Source: Bremerella sp. P1
GTDB taxonomy: Bacteria; Planctomycetota; Planctomycetia; Pirellulales; Pirellulaceae
Reading direction: 5' to 3'
Assembly (NCBI RefSeq): GCF_028748185.1
Contig: NZ_CP118164.1
Coordinates: 3,403,814 to 3,435,813 of the forward strand
Length of the DNA stretch: 32,000 bases
The notes under the pieces were generated by a model. It was not told the origin of the DNA, made no database searches, and saw only the letters and a program-made list of their open reading frames with translations. Positions 5,127-27,325 of this stretch are shown piece by piece. Position numbers and translations under genes: made by a program. How positions within the stretch are numbered: the first letter of the stretch is position 1; the number at the start of each line of letters is the position of its first letter.

Positions 5127-5597
5127 TCAGAGGATCACGCTGGCCAGCTTCAGTATCGCATCGAACTCTTTCTTCTTCACCGGCTGAACCGAAAGGCGCG
5201 AGCCTTTGCGCATGAGCTCCATGTCGGAAAGTGCCTTCACGCCGGTAAGTTCATTACGCCCCAGCGGTTCGGGGAACTTCTTTTTAAGCTTGATATCGAC
5301 CATGAACCACCGCGGCTTCTCTGGGGTGCTCTTTGGGTCGTAGTGGTGGTCGTTTTCGTCCCAAGAGGTGAAGTCGGGATAGCTTTCCTTCACCACTTCC
5401 GCCACGCCGACAATCGCCGGTGGGTTGGCATTGGAGTGGTAGAAGAGCACCAGGTCCCCCTTCTTCATGTCGTCTCGCATGAAATTCCGGGCCTGGTAAT
5501 TGCGTACACCGGACCAGAAGGTGGTCTTCTTCTTTTCCTTGGCCAGATCATCGATCGAGTACGATTCTGGCTCCGTTTTCATTAACCAGTAATTCAT
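5127..5597 (-). CDS. EVE (PUA-like) domain protein
   Basis: The N-terminus MNYWLMKTEPESYSIDDL and the segments GVRNYQARNFMRDDMKKGDLVLFYHS and AIVGVAEVVKESYPD are the canonical stand-alone EVE/DUF55 pattern. The product is 156 aa. Confidence 0.85.
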   Translation of the reverse strand: MNYWLMKTEPESYSIDDLAKEKKKTTFWSGVRNYQARNFMRDDMKKGDLVLFYHSNANPPAIVGVAEVVKESYPDFTSWDENDHHYDPKSTPEKPRWFMVDIKLKKKFPEPLGRNELTGVKALSDMELMRKGSRLSVQPVKKKEFDAILKLASVIL

Positions 5598-13275: not shown

Positions 13276-14619
13276 CTACAGCAGTTCGCTGGCGATGTCT
13301 GCCAGTTCCGAACGTTCGCCTTTCTCAAGCGAGATGTGAGCGTACAGGTCTTGCCCTTTCATGCGGTTGATCATGTACGACAAACCGTTGGACAAACTAT
13401 CCAGGTATGGATGGTCGATCTGGTTGATGTCGCCGGTGAAGACGATCTTGGTCCCCTCGCCTGCCCGGGTGATGATGGTCTTCACCTCGTGTGGGGTCAG
13501 GTTCTGGGCTTCGTCGACAATCATGTACATCCGCTGCAAGCTACGTCCGCGAATGTAGGCCAGCGGCGTAATGACCAGCTTTTCCTGCTCCAGCATACGG
13601 TTGATACGCTGGGCTTCTTTGTCGGTATCGTTGAACTGATGCCGGATCACTGAGAGGTTGTCGAACAGCGGCTGCATGTACGGATCCATCTTCGCCGAAA
13701 TATCGCCAGGCAAATAACCCAGGTCTCGGTTGGAAAGAGGAACGACCGGCCGAGCCAACAAGATCTGGCGATACGCCGATGAGCAAGCCAAGGCCGACGA
13801 AAGCGCGAGCAGTGTCTTACCGGTACCGGCCTTGCCGGCCAGGGTGACCAGCTTGATGTTGTCATCCATCAATGCCTTGATGGCGAACACCTGCTCAGCG
13901 TTGCGCGGCTTGATGCCGTACGGGCTGTACTTCTCGATTCGCCGCAGGACTTGTTCTTCGTGGTTGAAGGTCGCCAGAACCGACTTCGATCCGTTTCGCA
14001 GGACGAAGTTTTCGTTAGCGATCGGATCGCTCACTTCGGGAAAATCTTCCAGGTGAACGTTGCCAGAGTCCTGGTAGAAACGATCGATTTGTTCGGTCGT
14101 GATGTTCTCGAGGGTTCGGCGACCCGAGTAGAGGCTGTCGAAACTCTCGATCTTGTCGTTGATATAGTCTTGTGCCTGAAGGCCAAGGCTCTTAGCTTTC
14201 ATCCGCAGATTCACGTCCTTGGTGATCAGGATCACACGCCGATCGTTGACGTAACGTTGCAGATGGAGGGCCGTGTTCAGAATACGATTATCAGGCGAGT
14301 CGTGGAGAAAAACCTGATGGAGGCGAGCGTCTAATTCGTTGGTGATGATGACTCGGAGGCGGCCTTGTTCTTCGCCTAATGTGGCCCCTTCTTCAGAGAG
14401 TAGATCGCCGGTCATTTGGTCGATCTGGCGAAGAAACTCGCGGGCCTGGAAATTGATGTCCTCGTTGCCTTTTTTGAAGCGATCCAACTCCTCGAGGACG
14501 GTGATGGGCAAGGCCACATCGTGCTCCTCAAAATTTTGGAACGATCTTGCATCGTGCAAGATAACGTTGGTGTCGAGAACGAAAAGCTTCAACTGCGTCT
14601 GCACCGACTGACTAATCAT
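13276..14619 (-). CDS. PhoH2-type protein: N-terminal PIN domain fused to PhoH-like ATPase
   Basis: The PIN signature is [13 protein letters not shown]...[12 protein letters not shown]. The PhoH part has Walker [11 protein letters not shown], Walker [13 protein letters not shown], and FTGDINQID. Confidence 0.9.
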
Positions 14620-14695: not shown

Positions 14696-14728
14696 GGTCA
14701 CAATCCATTGCTTAGCTGGATTGTGACC
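14696..14728. repeat. Perfect 12-bp inverted repeat with a 9-nt spacer in the divergent intergenic region
   Basis: The arms are ggtcacaatcca (14696-14707) and tggattgtgacc (14717-14728), separated by ttgcttagc. No U-tract follows on either strand, so this is not a terminator. It lies 77 nt upstream of the PhoH2 start. Confidence 0.6.
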
Positions 14729-15124
14729 GAGGTGCCATCCTGGGAAAAGCCCGCTTTTTCCATGTCGTAACATTTTCAGGAAAATAGGCGAACTGCAGGA
14801 AATGGCCCCTCTGAGTATCTTCCGTGCGTTAATTGATTATACCGTATCGGACATATCCCTGTTTCTCAGGTTCGTCTCGTTTTAGCACTTAGACCTTTTG
14901 CACCAGTGACGTAACGTCTACTTACGAGAAACTTTGCGGAACCTTCGCCAGAATTTTGCCTCTCCGGAAAGTCTACCCAGGTGGACAGCGCAAAGATCGA
15001 AAAACTCCGGTCTTTGAGTTGCCGCCTATTGGGGGCAATGCCTACAATCGAGCAATACATGGAAGCGGTTTCGCGGATGGTTGCGAGATCCAAGTCGTGC
15101 ACCTTTTGAGACGAAAGGTTCTCA

Positions 15125-16639
15125 ATGGATTATGCGTCGATTCTGGCTCGTTACATCGGCAGGGAAGTTTATGTATCGACATTTGGCCACGTTCGCTTAC
15201 GTGGAGAATTGGTCGCAGTTTACGAAGACTGCGTCCGTCTAATTAATGCCTCGACTTCGCAAGAGTCTGAGGATGCCCCTTGGTCTAGTTCGGTGACGGA
15301 CTTTGGTGATGATGGACCCCAAACGGACGGCTCGGAAGCCCTGGTCCACTTTCATCACATTGTCGCGATCCGCTGTGCGGATGACGAATTGCTAGATGTT
15401 CCGGTGCTGCCGGAATTCAGTGCAGAGTCGTCTGAACCGATGGTCGAGAATGACACCACCACAGCCCAAGGGAGCACGCAGGAACCTTGGGAAGCGTTCC
15501 TCGAAGTGGATCGTTTAACCCTGGAATTGGGGCAAAAACTGGTCAAACTCGTGCATCCCGAGTCAACGGACATCATGCAGCGGACCTCTGCGATTCGCTG
15601 TCATTTGGCCGATTCGTTGGGGATGGTGATTCCGAGATTGCGCCTGCGTGATTCGCTTGATTTAGGGGATCAGGAATACCGAATCCTCATCGATCAATAC
15701 GAGGTCGCTCGCGGCCGACTGGGCCCTGGACAGTATCTGGCCCTCGACATGGGAACCTCCAGCGGAACGTTGCAAGGCGTCCGCGGGATCGATCCTACGT
15801 TTGGTGGACCAGGTATCTGGATCAAGTCCGATCAGCAGCAAGAGGCCGAGCAACTTGGCTATCTGGTTATCGATCCTTCGATGCTGGTGATTACGCATCT
15901 GCAGGAAACCTTGCGGCGACATGCCCACGAGATTCTGACGCTGGGCGACGTTCGTGAAATGCTCGAACGGCTGCGGGATCGCTCGCCGGGCGAGTTCGAC
16001 GAGATTCGCTCGAGCCCGATGACAGTGTCCATGTTGCACGCAGTTTTACGGCGATTATTAGAAGAAGGGGAGTCGATCAAGAACTTCTCGCGAATCGTCG
16101 AGATTCTGGCCCTGCACGGACACCGCAATCAAGACATTGAATCGCTGGTCGCGATGGTCCGCGTCCGACTCGGACGACAGTTAGTCCAGCGCTATATCGA
16201 TTCGGATGGGAAAGTCCATGCGATCGGTCTCGACCGAGAGTTGGAAGCTCCCCTACTGCAGATGAGCGACGAAGACGCTGGTCGGCACGTACGCGGCTGG
16301 ATGGAACGTCTTGTCGACGTATTGCGTGAAGCGTTCAATCGGCTCGACGAACAACAGCGACCGGTCGCGGTTATCGTTTCGTCCGATCTGCGGAATCGCT
16401 TGTGGCAAATCCTTTCGCCTCACTTCCCGCAGGTTACTGTCCTGAGCCTGGCGGAGATTCCGCGGGGGACCGACATCTACTGGCAGGTGATCATTTCGCC
16501 GGAAGAGGTCGGAGCCTTGGAAACGGCCGTCAAACGCCCACAGCACCCGGCGGTCGCGAAGGACACCACCTATCGTCCGAGCAAGAGCAAGATGTCCGAG
16601 CACATGGCGGAAGAATTGCCCCCGCGTCGGCCACGTTAA
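15125..16639 (+). CDS. Soluble FlhA/SctV (FHIPEP) cytoplasmic-domain homologue with Sm-like N-terminal domain; lacks the transmembrane export-gate domain
   Basis: Residues from about 130 to 480 are collinear with FlhA-C as I recall it. Matching segments are IRCHLADSLGMVIPRLRLRDSLDLGDQEYRILIDQYEVARG, IDPTFGGPGIWI, VIDPSMLVITHL, LHAVLRRLLEEGESIKNFSRIVEIL, VRVRLGRQL and PQVTVLSLAEIP. Residues 1-84 have an Sm-like strand pattern. The protein contains no hydrophobic helix. Confidence 0.75.
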   Translation: MDYASILARYIGREVYVSTFGHVRLRGELVAVYEDCVRLINASTSQESEDAPWSSSVTDFGDDGPQTDGSEALVHFHHIVAIRCADDELLDVPVLPEFSAESSEPMVENDTTTAQGSTQEPWEAFLEVDRLTLELGQKLVKLVHPESTDIMQRTSAIRCHLADSLGMVIPRLRLRDSLDLGDQEYRILIDQYEVARGRLGPGQYLALDMGTSSGTLQGVRGIDPTFGGPGIWIKSDQQQEAEQLGYLVIDPSMLVITHLQETLRRHAHEILTLGDVREMLERLRDRSPGEFDEIRSSPMTVSMLHAVLRRLLEEGESIKNFSRIVEILALHGHRNQDIESLVAMVRVRLGRQLVQRYIDSDGKVHAIGLDRELEAPLLQMSDEDAGRHVRGWMERLVDVLREAFNRLDEQQRPVAVIVSSDLRNRLWQILSPHFPQVTVLSLAEIPRGTDIYWQVIISPEEVGALETAVKRPQHPAVAKDTTYRPSKSKMSEHMAEELPPRRPR

Positions 16640-16660
16640 CGCAGCGAAGTAAACTTCAAG

Positions 16661-16703
16661 AGATGGCTACCGCCGGCTTCGGCGGTGGCCATCTTTCGTT
16701 TCT
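16661..16703 (+). terminator. Rho-independent terminator after the FlhA-C-like gene
   Basis: The hairpin is agatggctaccgccg-gctt-cggcggtggccatct, a 15-bp stem with one G-U pair. It is followed by ttcgtttctt and lies 22 nt after the stop codon. Confidence 0.8.
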
Positions 16704-22545: not shown

Positions 22546-23559
22546 GTGCGAGATGAAACCAGTAGAGTTCTCTCGCAAACGGCATTAAGCGTGGCATATC
22601 TGATCGGAATCGATGAAGCTGGATACGGCCCCAACCTGGGACCGTTGGTCATCGGTGGAACCGTATGGCACCTCGACGACCGCCACGACGATCTCGACGG
22701 TATCGAACTGTACGACCTGTTGAAAGAAGCCATCGCGCGTAAGCCAAGTCGTAAGCATTTGGCGATTGCGGATTCAAAGGTCGTGTACGGTAAGCGAGAC
22801 GATCTCTCGCTGCTGGAAGAAGCCGTGCTCGCAACCGGCGATCATCTGGCCCATGTCCATCCGATCTGGGATGGATGCTGTGAGCCCGACCTGGGGGACG
22901 CCGCACCACAGGACCTGGCCCCATGGTATTTGGGGTGGCAGCATGTGTGCCCGCTGCACGCCGCGAGCGACACGGTCGCCGAGCGAACGACGCAGTTCGC
23001 CAGTGCCTGTCAGGCATGTGGCGTGTCGCTGAGCCAGGTGCGAAGCGTCTTTCTGACGGAGAAATCGTACAACGAGCGTCTCGCTAGAATCGGTAACAAG
23101 AGCACCGTGCTCTCGCACGCATCGCTCGGTTTGGTGCGGCGGCTGCTCGAAGAGATCGAGTCCCCGACTCCCCAGGCCGTACGCATCGTGTGTGACAAGC
23201 ATGGCGGGCGAGACTACTACGCCGGGCTCTTGCAGCACTTCTTCCCCGAAACGTGGTGGCAGATTCAAGAGGAGTCGCGCAGTGTCAGCCGTTATTTCGG
23301 CGAGTTCGGCCCGTTGGAAGTGTCGATCGAGTTTCGCTCGAAAGGGGAAGGCTTTCTCCCCACCGCGCTGGCGTCGATCTACGCCAAGTTCCACCGCGAG
23401 GTCGCGATGCGGGCCATCAATGCCTACTGGGCGAAACAGATTCCAGGAATCGCCGAGACCGCCGGGTATCCGGTCGACGCGGCTCGCTTTGCCGACGAGA
23501 CCGAAGCAAGCCGTAAGGAACTGAATATTCCGTGGGAAACATTCTGGCGACTCAAATAA
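22546..23559 (+). CDS. Divergent RNase HII-like (RNase H2 family) protein with large Cys/His-containing insertion
   Basis: RNase HII motifs occur in the canonical order: IGIDEAGYGPNLGPLV (DE), IADSKVV (D), IVCDKHGG (D), SKGEGFLPTALASIYAKFHRE, and AGYPVD. At 337 aa it is longer than the roughly 200 aa typical of the family. The GTG start is 14 nt after the upstream stop, and an alternative GTG lies at 22591. Confidence 0.6.
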   Translation: MRDETSRVLSQTALSVAYLIGIDEAGYGPNLGPLVIGGTVWHLDDRHDDLDGIELYDLLKEAIARKPSRKHLAIADSKVVYGKRDDLSLLEEAVLATGDHLAHVHPIWDGCCEPDLGDAAPQDLAPWYLGWQHVCPLHAASDTVAERTTQFASACQACGVSLSQVRSVFLTEKSYNERLARIGNKSTVLSHASLGLVRRLLEEIESPTPQAVRIVCDKHGGRDYYAGLLQHFFPETWWQIQEESRSVSRYFGEFGPLEVSIEFRSKGEGFLPTALASIYAKFHREVAMRAINAYWAKQIPGIAETAGYPVDAARFADETEASRKELNIPWETFWRLK

Positions 23560-25506: not shown

Positions 25507-26418
25507 ATGCCTCAGCCACGGCTTGGCCACGAAAACCTGGGACTGGGGGTCGGACTGCGCGCCCCTCATTTCTCTTACATACTTGAGCACTGGCCGAAGG
25601 TCGACTGGTTCGAGATCATCTCGGAGAATTACATCGACTCGCAGGGACGCCCTCGGTATGTCCTTGATCAAATCGCCGAACGTTATCCGGTGGTGATGCA
25701 CGGCGTATCGCTCTCGATCGGCAGCACCGATCCGCTCGACTTCGATTATCTTGCCAAACTGAAGTCGCTATCGCAGGCGATTGGTGCCCGATGGATCTCG
25801 GATCATGTCTGTTGGACCGGCGTGTCCGGGCAGAATACGCACGATCTGTTACCAATTCCGTACAACGAAGAGTCGCTCAAGCACGTTGCCCAGCGGGTAC
25901 GCCAGGTGCAAGAGTTCCTTGAGCGTCCGCTGATCCTGGAAGATCCCAGCAGCTATGTCACCTTCGCCGCGTCAACGATGAGCGAGTGGGAATTCTTAAC
26001 GGCTTTGACCGAAGAGACTGGCTGCGGGCTGCTGCTCGATGTGAATAACGTTTATGTTTCGGCCGTGAATCACGACTTTGATCCGGTCGAGTACATCGAG
26101 AATCTTCCGTCGGAGAGCATCGTTCAGTTTCACCTGGCGGGGCATACCAACATGGGTGACTACTGCATCGACACACACGACGGCCACGTGATCGATCCCG
26201 TGTGGAAGCTGTATCGCCTGACTCACGAGCGAACTGGAGGCGTATCGACGTTGTTGGAATGGGATGCCAACATTCCCGACTTTCCGACGCTGCATGCCGA
26301 GGTTCTCAAGGCGAAGCGGTTTATCCAAGGGGAAACGATTACCGTCGATGAACCTGTCGGCAACGGCCACACGGCTGTTCCGCACCCGGCGCATCGTATC
26401 GAGCACGAAGTGAGCTAG
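25507..26418 (+). CDS. DUF692 family protein (MNIO / MbnB-like / BufB-like, TIM-barrel iron enzyme)
   Basis: The product is collinear end to end with the DUF692/UPF0276 pattern: [87 protein letters not shown], and TLLEWD. Confidence 0.9.
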
Positions 26419-26422
26419 ATCG

Positions 26423-27325
26423 ATGACCGACAGTAAACAGAATTTGCACGACTTGCCGGTGCTTCAAAAGTGGATGCAGTCGGTGATCACTCATGTGGAC
26501 GGCGTGGTGGAAGGAATCCATTCGCCGGAGGCCCAGCAGCAGATCCCGGTAGACGCGTCCCAGATCGAGTCGGTCGTCACGCCCAGTCAGCGACGCACCA
26601 GCACCGAGCGACTGGAAGTGTACGCCCACGCTTACTATGCCAGGTTGGTCGAATGTTTGAAGTCGATCTATCCCCTGTTTGCCAAGACGGTTGGGGATGA
26701 ACTATTCGATCAGTTCGCGATTGCCTACTTGCAACAGCATCCGTCACGATCTTACACGCTGAATCGGCTGGGAGATCAGTTTCCCGATTTCCTGGAAGAG
26801 ACGAGCCCGACCCGCGGAACCGATCAGCTGGGATTCGAGGACTTCCTGGTCGAGTTGGCCGTTGCGGAACGCACCATTGATGCGATCTTCGACGGGCCTG
26901 GTGTCGAGCAGACGGACGTGCTCTCGCCGTCGGAGTTGGAAGGCATCTCGCCCGATCAGTTTGCCGAGGCTACGTTCCAGATGGTGCCCTGTCTGCGGCT
27001 GCACTCGTTTGCTTTCCCGGTGAGTGACTTCATCACCGCGATCAAGCAAGATCCCCAAGCTGATATGCCAGAAGCTTCACCCAGTTGGTTGGCTTTAACG
27101 CGGAGGGACTACGTCGTACGGAGGGTGCCACTTTCGCGCTGGCAGTATCATCTGCTGGTGCGGCTTGCCGAGGGGCAGAGTGTTTCCCAGGCGATCGCAG
27201 GAGCGGTCGTCGAAGTCGTTCCGTCAGAAGATATTACGGAATTGCTAGCGGCTGCTTTCCAGAAATTCACCAGCGAGCAGTTCTTTCTGGCAATTGAAGT
27301 CCCTTCGGAGCGAAGAGATGGATAG
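26423..27325 (+). CDS. DUF2063 family protein (MbnC/BufC-like partner of DUF692 enzymes)
   Basis: The start is 4 nt after the DUF692 stop. Family segments are LQKWMQSVITH, RLEVYAHAYYARLVECLKSIYPLFAKTVGDELFDQFAIAYLQQHPSRSYTLNRLGDQFPDFL, and LVELAVAERT. These fit the DUF2063 N-terminal pattern. Confidence 0.8.
   Translation: MTDSKQNLHDLPVLQKWMQSVITHVDGVVEGIHSPEAQQQIPVDASQIESVVTPSQRRTSTERLEVYAHAYYARLVECLKSIYPLFAKTVGDELFDQFAIAYLQQHPSRSYTLNRLGDQFPDFLEETSPTRGTDQLGFEDFLVELAVAERTIDAIFDGPGVEQTDVLSPSELEGISPDQFAEATFQMVPCLRLHSFAFPVSDFITAIKQDPQADMPEASPSWLALTRRDYVVRRVPLSRWQYHLLVRLAEGQSVSQAIAGAVVEVVPSEDITELLAAAFQKFTSEQFFLAIEVPSERRDG

Follow-up and report, generated by a model that had tools for sequence, protein, structure and literature searches.

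A conserved planctomycete protein family in which a soluble FlhA-type cytoplasmic domain is joined to a predicted Sm/LSm-fold domain

So far, the cytoplasmic domains of the export-gate proteins FlhA and SctV (FlhA-C and SctV-C) are understood in a single setting, as the ring on the cytoplasmic side of a membrane export gate. Ahead of this domain, canonical FlhA carries an N-terminal polytopic membrane domain of about 330 amino acids with eight transmembrane (TM) helices and the FHIPEP motif. Here we describe a gene at 15125..16639 on the forward strand of a 32,000-nucleotide stretch of the Bremerella sp. P1 genome (NZ_CP118164.1, positions 3,403,814 to 3,435,813; hereafter the window), which encodes a complete protein of 504 residues plus stop codon. 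Unlike FlhA, this protein has an LSm-like domain in place of the FHIPEP membrane domain, followed by an acidic linker, an FlhA-type cytoplasmic domain and a tail ending in Pro-Arg. That it is a soluble protein of this identity and architecture we regard as close to certain, and we refer to it as the LSm-FlhA-C protein.

The nearest conceptual precedent is FlhX (HP1575, PP_4329), in which the cytoplasmic domain of a gate protein likewise occurs as a separate soluble protein, standing alongside the full-length gene. FlhX, however, derives from FlhB, has no added domain, is usually encoded in or near flagellar operons and depends on FliA; it is analogous to the LSm-FlhA-C protein, not homologous. 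The LSm-fused, membrane-free FlhA-C is a conserved protein family, and a full-text search of the literature found no description of an FlhA-C that lacks TM segments or is fused to an LSm domain. Databases label the family members FlhA, FHIPEP family type III secretion protein or hypothetical protein.

The FlhA-type cytoplasmic domain comprises subdomains D1–D4 and extends over residues 128–458 (15506..16498, forward strand), as delimited by Pfam, NCBIfam and PDB sequence matches together with AlphaFold2 (AF2) and Foldseek. The Pfam FHIPEP profile (PF00771) matches residues 107–448 with an E-value of 3.8e-75 and 254 bits, against a gathering score of 29.1 bits; the match covers profile positions 309–655 of 657, which is the cytoplasmic half only. 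The NCBIfam models for FlhA (TIGR01398, residues 104–451) and SctV (TIGR01399) score 276 and 123 bits, respectively, and both scores lie far under the equivalog cutoffs of 772 and 692 bits because half of each model is left unmatched. Judged by these profile scores, the protein is a domain-level homologue of FlhA and no FlhA equivalog, and its cytoplasmic domain is of the FlhA rather than the SctV type. The initial annotation had spoken of an FlhA/SctV domain: the export-gate cytoplasmic fold stands, but the two names do not apply equally. Its claim of collinearity with FlhA-C was borne out by the C-terminal FHIPEP match, and the Salmonella strings that it quoted agree with the alignment.

Structural comparison leads to the same assignment. 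The closest solved structures are those of Salmonella FlhA-C (7ctn, E 2.7e-50; 3a5i, aligned to residues 77–447), whereas injectisome SctV-C structures are matched far more weakly in the PDB sequence search, at E about 1e-18. The injectisome proteins SctV, InvA, YscV and MxiA nevertheless share the common fold and belong to the same nonamer-forming superfamily; no injectisome genes are found near the gene described here. The AF2 model is confident over residues 128–466, with a predicted local distance difference test (pLDDT) score of 80–95. In Foldseek the monomer model resembles FlhA-C crystal structures with a TM-score of about 0.7 normalised to target length, so that the structural check proposed earlier came out in favour of an FlhA-C fold. 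D1–D4 are homologous to those of Salmonella (3A5I, 6CH2, 6CH3) and of the Vibrio nonamer (7AMY) at about 32% identity, and identity to canonical FlhA-C in general is about 30–35%. In a PHROGs search, the FlhA-C part also matches phrog_12657, a family of unknown function with a profile length of 579 (E 1.4e-57), which indicates that an FlhA-like family is catalogued among phage or prophage proteins.

The membrane domain is absent from the protein and from its surroundings. The highest 19-residue Kyte-Doolittle mean is 0.94, compared with 3.08 in canonical FlhA, and no stretch of the protein qualifies as a TM segment; together with the confinement of the FHIPEP match to the cytoplasmic half, this agrees with the earlier description of a soluble protein without a TM export gate. 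When the N-terminal 345 residues of eight diverse FlhAs were used in tblastn searches of the window, no membrane-domain remnant was found (best E 0.5), whereas the C-terminal halves of the same eight proteins matched the gene at E 1e-16 to 1e-51. A custom hidden Markov model (HMM) built on 150 FlhA membrane domains, with which control FlhAs score about 450 bits, found no match in the six-frame translation of the window nor in 61 members of the family.

These searches bear on the suspicion that the gene is a pseudogene remnant, a split gene or a gene-calling artefact of a full-length flhA. An FHIPEP protein without its N-terminal half gives that first impression, and NCBI names relatives 'FlhA' or 'FHIPEP family protein'. 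The initial annotation had accordingly named a frameshifted or split TM-encoding portion directly upstream in other assemblies as the observation that would speak for a remnant, and the window holds none in any of its six frames. The architecture of about 500 residues moreover recurs in more than 60 clusters drawn both from complete genomes and from metagenome-assembled genomes (MAGs), and the gene is under strong purifying selection with a conserved start, promoter and terminator. We consider the remnant, split-gene and artefact readings refuted, with a practically negligible probability left to them.

Position 15125 is the earliest start codon downstream of the preceding stop and the orthologues all start with MDY, which rules out a mis-called start or an N-terminal extension; a 576-residue form of the orthologue P0019 proved to be an over-extended gene call. 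Against four orthologues, the ratio of non-synonymous to synonymous substitution rates (dN/dS) is 0.055–0.105 over the whole gene, with values of 0.02–0.10 in the core of the N-terminal domain, 0.025–0.09 in FlhA-C and 0.17–0.24 in the linker. The intergenic region upstream is 505 bp long and contains a sigma-70-like promoter candidate, TTGCCG-N18-TACAAT, at 15019..15048 on the forward strand, identified by a consensus scan. Its blocks GTTGCCGC and TAcAATC are invariant in seven loci, reaching down to 51–57% protein identity, and this element probably acts as the promoter; a motif scan of the 505-bp region revealed nothing resembling a sigma-28 or sigma-54 motif. A terminator-like hairpin (16659..16696) separates the LSm-FlhA-C gene from the convergent fxsA; it has a 17-bp stem including 10 GC pairs, a loop of four and a T-rich tail. 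Because of the low dN/dS, lowest in the two folded domains, the conserved promoter and the terminator, the gene is read as intact and selectively maintained, in line with the initial view of a stand-alone unit and not a fragment.

From DNA conservation among Bremerella loci, a 5' leader of about 70 nt may be placed at 15049..15124 (forward strand). Nucleotide identity among these loci is highest at 15034–15270, comprising the leader and the first ~150 nt of the coding sequence, with values of 0.92–1.00 against the close loci. Synonymous divergence (dS) relative to locus L003 is 0.07 in the LSm core and about 1.0 in the FlhA-C part, and these two observations together point to constraint at synonymous sites. 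The leader and 5' coding region matched no Rfam family, and RNAalifold covariation was weak.

The N-terminal domain occupies residues 1–86 (15125..15382, forward strand) and is the most conserved part of the protein among close relatives. It was resolved by AF2 only with a domain alignment of 42 sequences (pLDDT 80.5, core above 90) and not in the full-length model, for which the alignment held 18 sequences. The predicted elements are a helix at residues 3–8 and strands at 14–19, 24–32, 36–45, 71–75 and 79–84, with a disordered insertion at 46–70. When this model was compared with the PDB by Foldseek, nearly all of the top 50 matches were Sm, LSm or Sm-like archaeal proteins (SmAPs), with TM-scores of 0.6–0.8 normalised to target length; LSm1-7, LSm2-8 and archaeal SmAPs match best. 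On the strength of this model, the domain is predicted to have the Sm topology of a helix and five bent strands, as found throughout the Sm, LSm, SmAP and Hfq proteins. The insertion between strands 3 and 4 (residues 46–70, 15260..15334, forward strand; low pLDDT) is acidic and falls in the region between the Sm1 and Sm2 motifs that is variable in Sm/LSm proteins too. It is net negative in all 55 members compared, and its Trp53 is near-invariant (at least 90% of sequences).

Unlike known Sm/LSm proteins, the domain has no significant sequence match to the superfamily, is acidic instead of basic and is fused to a large non-RNA domain. Pfam LSM and Hfq gave no match to it even at E ≤ 10, and a profile-profile comparison by hhalign with an archaeal Sm1 sequence gave a probability of 9%, aligning only the helix and strands 1 and 2. 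The residues of the Sm uridine pocket (the Asn of Sm1 and the Arg-Gly of Sm2) are not recognisable. Weak similarities at E 0.001–0.012 to DUF6897 (PF21838), the RimP C-terminal SH3 domain and MM0924_fam all lie below the curated cutoffs, so that membership in these families does not follow; the DUF6897 match covers both halves of the domain, across the insertion. The initial annotation took the protein for a free-standing, bare FlhA-C. It was right about the missing membrane domain, but the roughly 100 N-terminal residues that it left unexplained hold this conserved Sm/LSm-fold domain.

The two folded domains are connected by an acidic, Pro-rich linker of variable sequence (residues 87–127, 15383..15505, forward strand), the C-terminal end of which corresponds to the FlhA linker FlhA_L. 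It is the least constrained segment of the protein, and its length ranges from 19 to 89 residues across the family. Trp122 aligns with Salmonella W354, and this Trp is kept only in the Bremerella/Blastopirellula clade. The protein ends in a tail (residues 459–504, 16499..16636, forward strand) that is predicted to be disordered (pLDDT <50) and closes with the sequence PPRRPR at the C-terminus. Near relatives all share the terminal R..PR, and a C-terminal Pro-Arg or Pro-Lys occurs in 29 of 54 full-length family representatives, as opposed to 1 of 246 canonical FlhAs, which makes the tail an addition relative to FlhA. The terminal Pro-Arg codons lie at 16631–16636; the motif stands at the end of an otherwise variable disordered tail, and we identified no known reader of it.

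A word-indexed search retrieved 21 proteins of about 490–507 residues with end-to-end coverage and identities from 93% down to 39%, those with a named source being from Blastopirellula or Bremerella; a genome scan found 91–92% identity to Bremerella sp. JC770 and to one Bremerella MAG. A profile of the N-terminal domain, run exhaustively with HMMER against 1.84 billion cluster representatives, found 65 proteins at E < 1e-3, 35 of them below 1e-10. Nearly all are 450–530 residues long with the N-terminal domain beginning at residue 1; FHIPEP is also matched in 61, the other four being short fragments, and in none of the 65 is the N-terminal domain fused to any other domain. The architecture is thereby conserved in relatives, with at least 61 clusters combining both domains, as the initial annotation had anticipated for an intact unit. 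All named members belong to Planctomycetia, and one distant member is annotated in the complete genome of Planctomycetales bacterium 10988. Among JGI metagenome proteins, P0031 (741 residues) has a partial FlhA-C, roughly D1–D3, at its C-terminus; its N-terminus contains a C2H2-like Cys/His stretch besides hydrophobic segments and, judged by eye, is unlike the FHIPEP membrane domain.

The FlhA-C part has diverged strongly, with a mean within-family distance of 1.8. A neighbour-joining tree over 334 columns placed 54 of the 61 family members in one clade and misplaced seven long-branch members, with a bootstrap of 0/50 for monophyly. Group HMMs showed no preference of the family for FlhA of Planctomycetota, the Armatimonadota model scoring higher for 47 of 61. 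Homologue searches seeded with the best full-length matches place the first of them (35% identity) within an FlhA clade of Phycisphaerae (Planctomycetota) and the next in Armatimonadota, and reached no canonical flhA of Bremerella or Blastopirellula. The shared N-terminal domain appears to be a better argument than the trees for a single origin of the family.

To compare functional sites, Salmonella FlhA residues were mapped by alignment onto 61 family members and 56 canonical FlhAs from Planctomycetota, Armatimonadota and other phyla. In Salmonella, D456 hydrogen-bonds an invariant Tyr of the chaperones FliS and FliT, while F459 and I440 line the cleft (PMC5932034). The Bremerella residues D223, F226, T257 and L207 align with D456, F459, T490 and I440, respectively, and R158 aligns with R391. 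An acidic residue at 456 is present in 52 of 61 family members and 55 of 56 canonical FlhAs, an aromatic one (Phe or Tyr) at 459 in 52/61 and 43/56, and T490 in 42/61 and 42/56; the position of I440 is hydrophobic in 56 of the 61, and R391 is kept in every one. On these counts the chaperone-docking cleft is retained in the family at canonical FlhA levels, which favours a docking role but is no proof of it; the sorting, decoy or regulatory platform and the co-option that the initial annotation suggested stay hypothetical.

Other sites have changed. Both R391/K392/K393 and the linker triad E351/W354/D356 serve ring formation and FliJ binding in Salmonella (PMC5916509). Across the family, K392 and K393 are poorly conserved and the triad is mostly lost, while the LSm-FlhA-C protein itself keeps the equivalents of E508 and R515 in D3. 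A proposal in PMC9431611 is that the GYXLI motif drives the opening and closing that export requires. Its Tyr is absent from all 61 family members, whereas 49 of 56 canonical FlhAs have Tyr or Phe there; of the flanking residues, the Gly (57/61), the Leu (58/61) and the Ile/Val are kept. As far as the alignment goes, the loss of this Tyr is the sharpest family-specific change.

As the likeliest reading, to which we give a probability of roughly 40%, we propose that the LSm-FlhA-C protein docks flagellar chaperone-substrate complexes in the cytosol, as a platform that its LSm-like domain would organise. The export chaperones FliS, FliT and FlgN would place their conserved Tyr in the FlhA-C cleft, so that their complexes with substrates would dock at a distance from the membrane gate, in the cytoplasm; it is the retained hydrophobic cleft that suggests such docking. 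The LSm-like domain, at the position of the membrane domain in FlhA, could supply the oligomerisation or anchoring that is otherwise given by the membrane domain and the membrane/supramembrane (MS) ring. Late flagellar subunits would thereby be held, pre-sorted or buffered instead of exported. A platform of this kind would not need the open-close export cycle, with which the missing GYXLI Tyr is in keeping. A tie to the cycle of sessile mother and flagellated daughter cells in these budding planctomycetes is possible. The literature gives indirect evidence of flagella in Pirellulales: flagellated daughter cells and flagellar genes are described for the order (PMC6995999), a flagellin for B. 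marina (PMC6248924) and FliO for R. baltica (PMC5542435).

Several observations weigh against this proposal. No flagellar or type III secretion system (T3SS) gene was found at 21 related loci, which amount to 16 non-redundant contexts, the promoter candidate is sigma-70-like and not of the flagellar class, and a single scan of genome contigs for a canonical flhA of Bremerella or Blastopirellula gave only orthologues of the gene described here. Within the protein, the position of L461, a residue essential for FliT binding in Salmonella, is occupied by Gly, the linker triad is eroded as described above, and folding alone could account for the conservation of the cleft residues, which sit where D1 meets D2. 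Finally, Sm rings are usually hexamers or heptamers, whereas FlhA-C rings are nonamers.

The same absence of flagellar linkage and the housekeeping-like promoter candidate would suit a co-opted protein, in which the FlhA-C scaffold and cleft bind unrelated clients or which forms a planctomycete-specific cytosolic hub unconnected with flagella. The conserved novelties of the family (the LSm domain, the acidic Trp-containing loop, the C-terminal Pro-Arg/Lys and the loss of the GYXLI Tyr) and the very divergent FlhA-C part point in this direction as well. Yet the chaperone-cleft residues and R391 have been kept as in true FlhAs over a very large divergence, which would be surprising had the ancestral ligands been given up; and since planctomycete flagellar genes are not known to be tightly clustered, the missing linkage is weak evidence. 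Co-option, although a serious contender, is thus on balance doubtful. R391 and the retained E508 and R515 equivalents are also what one might expect of a regulator of the gate itself, a soluble FlhA-C that would insert into the membrane FlhA-C ring, cap it or compete with it or with FliJ/FliH-FliI. Export would thereby be shut down or retuned, for instance in mother cells, which are non-motile. FlhX offers a precedent: in H. pylori this soluble homologue of FlhB-C can stand in for FlhB in part. But K392/K393 and the triad, needed in Salmonella for ring formation and FliJ binding, are unconserved in the family, and identity to canonical FlhA-C is low enough to make mixed rings less likely, which leaves such a regulator an unlikely candidate.

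A role linked to RNA, with the LSm-like domain binding for instance flagellin mRNA and coupling this to chaperone docking, or working together with the neighbouring PhoH2, would draw on the Foldseek matches of the domain, on the adjacency of PhoH2 in all eight close-clade loci and on the flagellin mRNA localisation and control through CsrA-FliW known from other bacteria (compare PMC4894983). The domain, however, is net acidic in 54 of 55 family members, and this charge together with the acidic insertion argues against classical Sm-type RNA binding; with the RNA pocket unrecognisable, no Pfam LSM match, a weak profile-profile match to archaeal Sm and PhoH2 adjacent in none of seven distant members, we rate this role as highly improbable. 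Returning to the cytosolic docking platform, a more elaborate form of it can be imagined, in which an LSm ring templates a cytosolic FlhA-C ring, and the acidic Trp loop and the C-terminal Pro-Arg act as pseudo-ligands or latches of a chaperone-client hub that times the release of flagellar (or other) subunits in the budding cycle. This elaboration is speculative and, in our estimate, improbable in its full form.

If a cytosolic hub of this kind is true, it would be the first export-gate docking ring operating away from any membrane, and the family may show the reuse of a secretion-machine part inside the cell. The family would amount to a natural experiment on what the ring does alone, on how ring assembly is nucleated and on how T3SS parts are recruited for cytosolic regulation, and for structural work it offers an FlhA-C that is soluble and may self-assemble. 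The naming of its members as 'FlhA' or 'FHIPEP family' in planctomycete genomes could cause flagellar export genes to be miscounted.

The genes next to the LSm-FlhA-C gene are those listed initially, namely phoH2, fxsA and bioF. Domain matches identify the divergent upstream neighbour at 13276..14619 (reverse strand) as PhoH2, with a PIN domain and a PhoH RNA helicase domain, and the convergent neighbours downstream as FxsA and BioF, the latter passing its equivalog cutoff. No open reading frame of at least 150 codons in the window has a flagellar or T3SS domain, so the absence of such neighbours claimed at the outset holds for the window as it does for the related loci. Within the clade of ≥50% identity, PhoH2 is the divergent upstream neighbour at all eight loci; as it adjoins the family gene in none of the seven distant members, its adjacency is treated as local synteny. 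A perfect inverted repeat, GGTCACAATCC-N11-GGATTGTGACC, lies at ~14697–14729 in the PhoH2-proximal part of the intergenic region and is conserved in Bremerella loci; it may serve phoH2 as an operator or as a hairpin in the leader.

There is no conserved partner gene, as the seven distant members have no neighbour in common. A broader survey of contexts in metagenome contigs with one family alignment found nothing, and PADLOC gave no match that would link the gene to a defence system. A connection to phages was rejected as well, the single PHROG matched being merely FlhA-like. Methyltransferase genes of the PCMT, Methyltransf_11/23 or SpoU types occur next to or near the family gene in four distant loci, L016 (11522–12241), L019 (9597–10283), L020 (6068–6847) and L018 (9475–10311); they are inconsistent in type and orientation and may reflect chance or residual synteny. 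Neighbours encoding class IV aminotransferases (Aminotran_4) recur loosely and inconsistently in distant loci. At L013 (5594–9765, reverse strand), the 4.7 kb that precede the distant member P0073 and hold no called gene turned out to be a 23S-5S rRNA operon with two tRNAs; its 16S gene is unlinked, as is typical of planctomycetes. The contexts of distant members are rich in genes regarded as characteristic of planctomycetes, namely this unlinked operon, sulfatases, DUF1501 and GFO_IDH_MocA.

Elsewhere in the window, an EVE-domain protein (E 8e-58) is encoded at 5127–5597 on the reverse strand, and a 337-residue protein at 22546–23559 on the forward strand has only a short N-terminal RNase HII-like match. 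At 25507–27325, also on the forward strand, a gene for an MNIO-family bufferin maturase, BufB (NF050167, 367 bits against an equivalog cutoff of 310), is followed by one for an HvfC/DUF2063 recognition partner of ribosomally synthesized and post-translationally modified peptides (RiPPs). Read from the maturase and partner genes, this region looks like a bufferin-type RiPP cluster.

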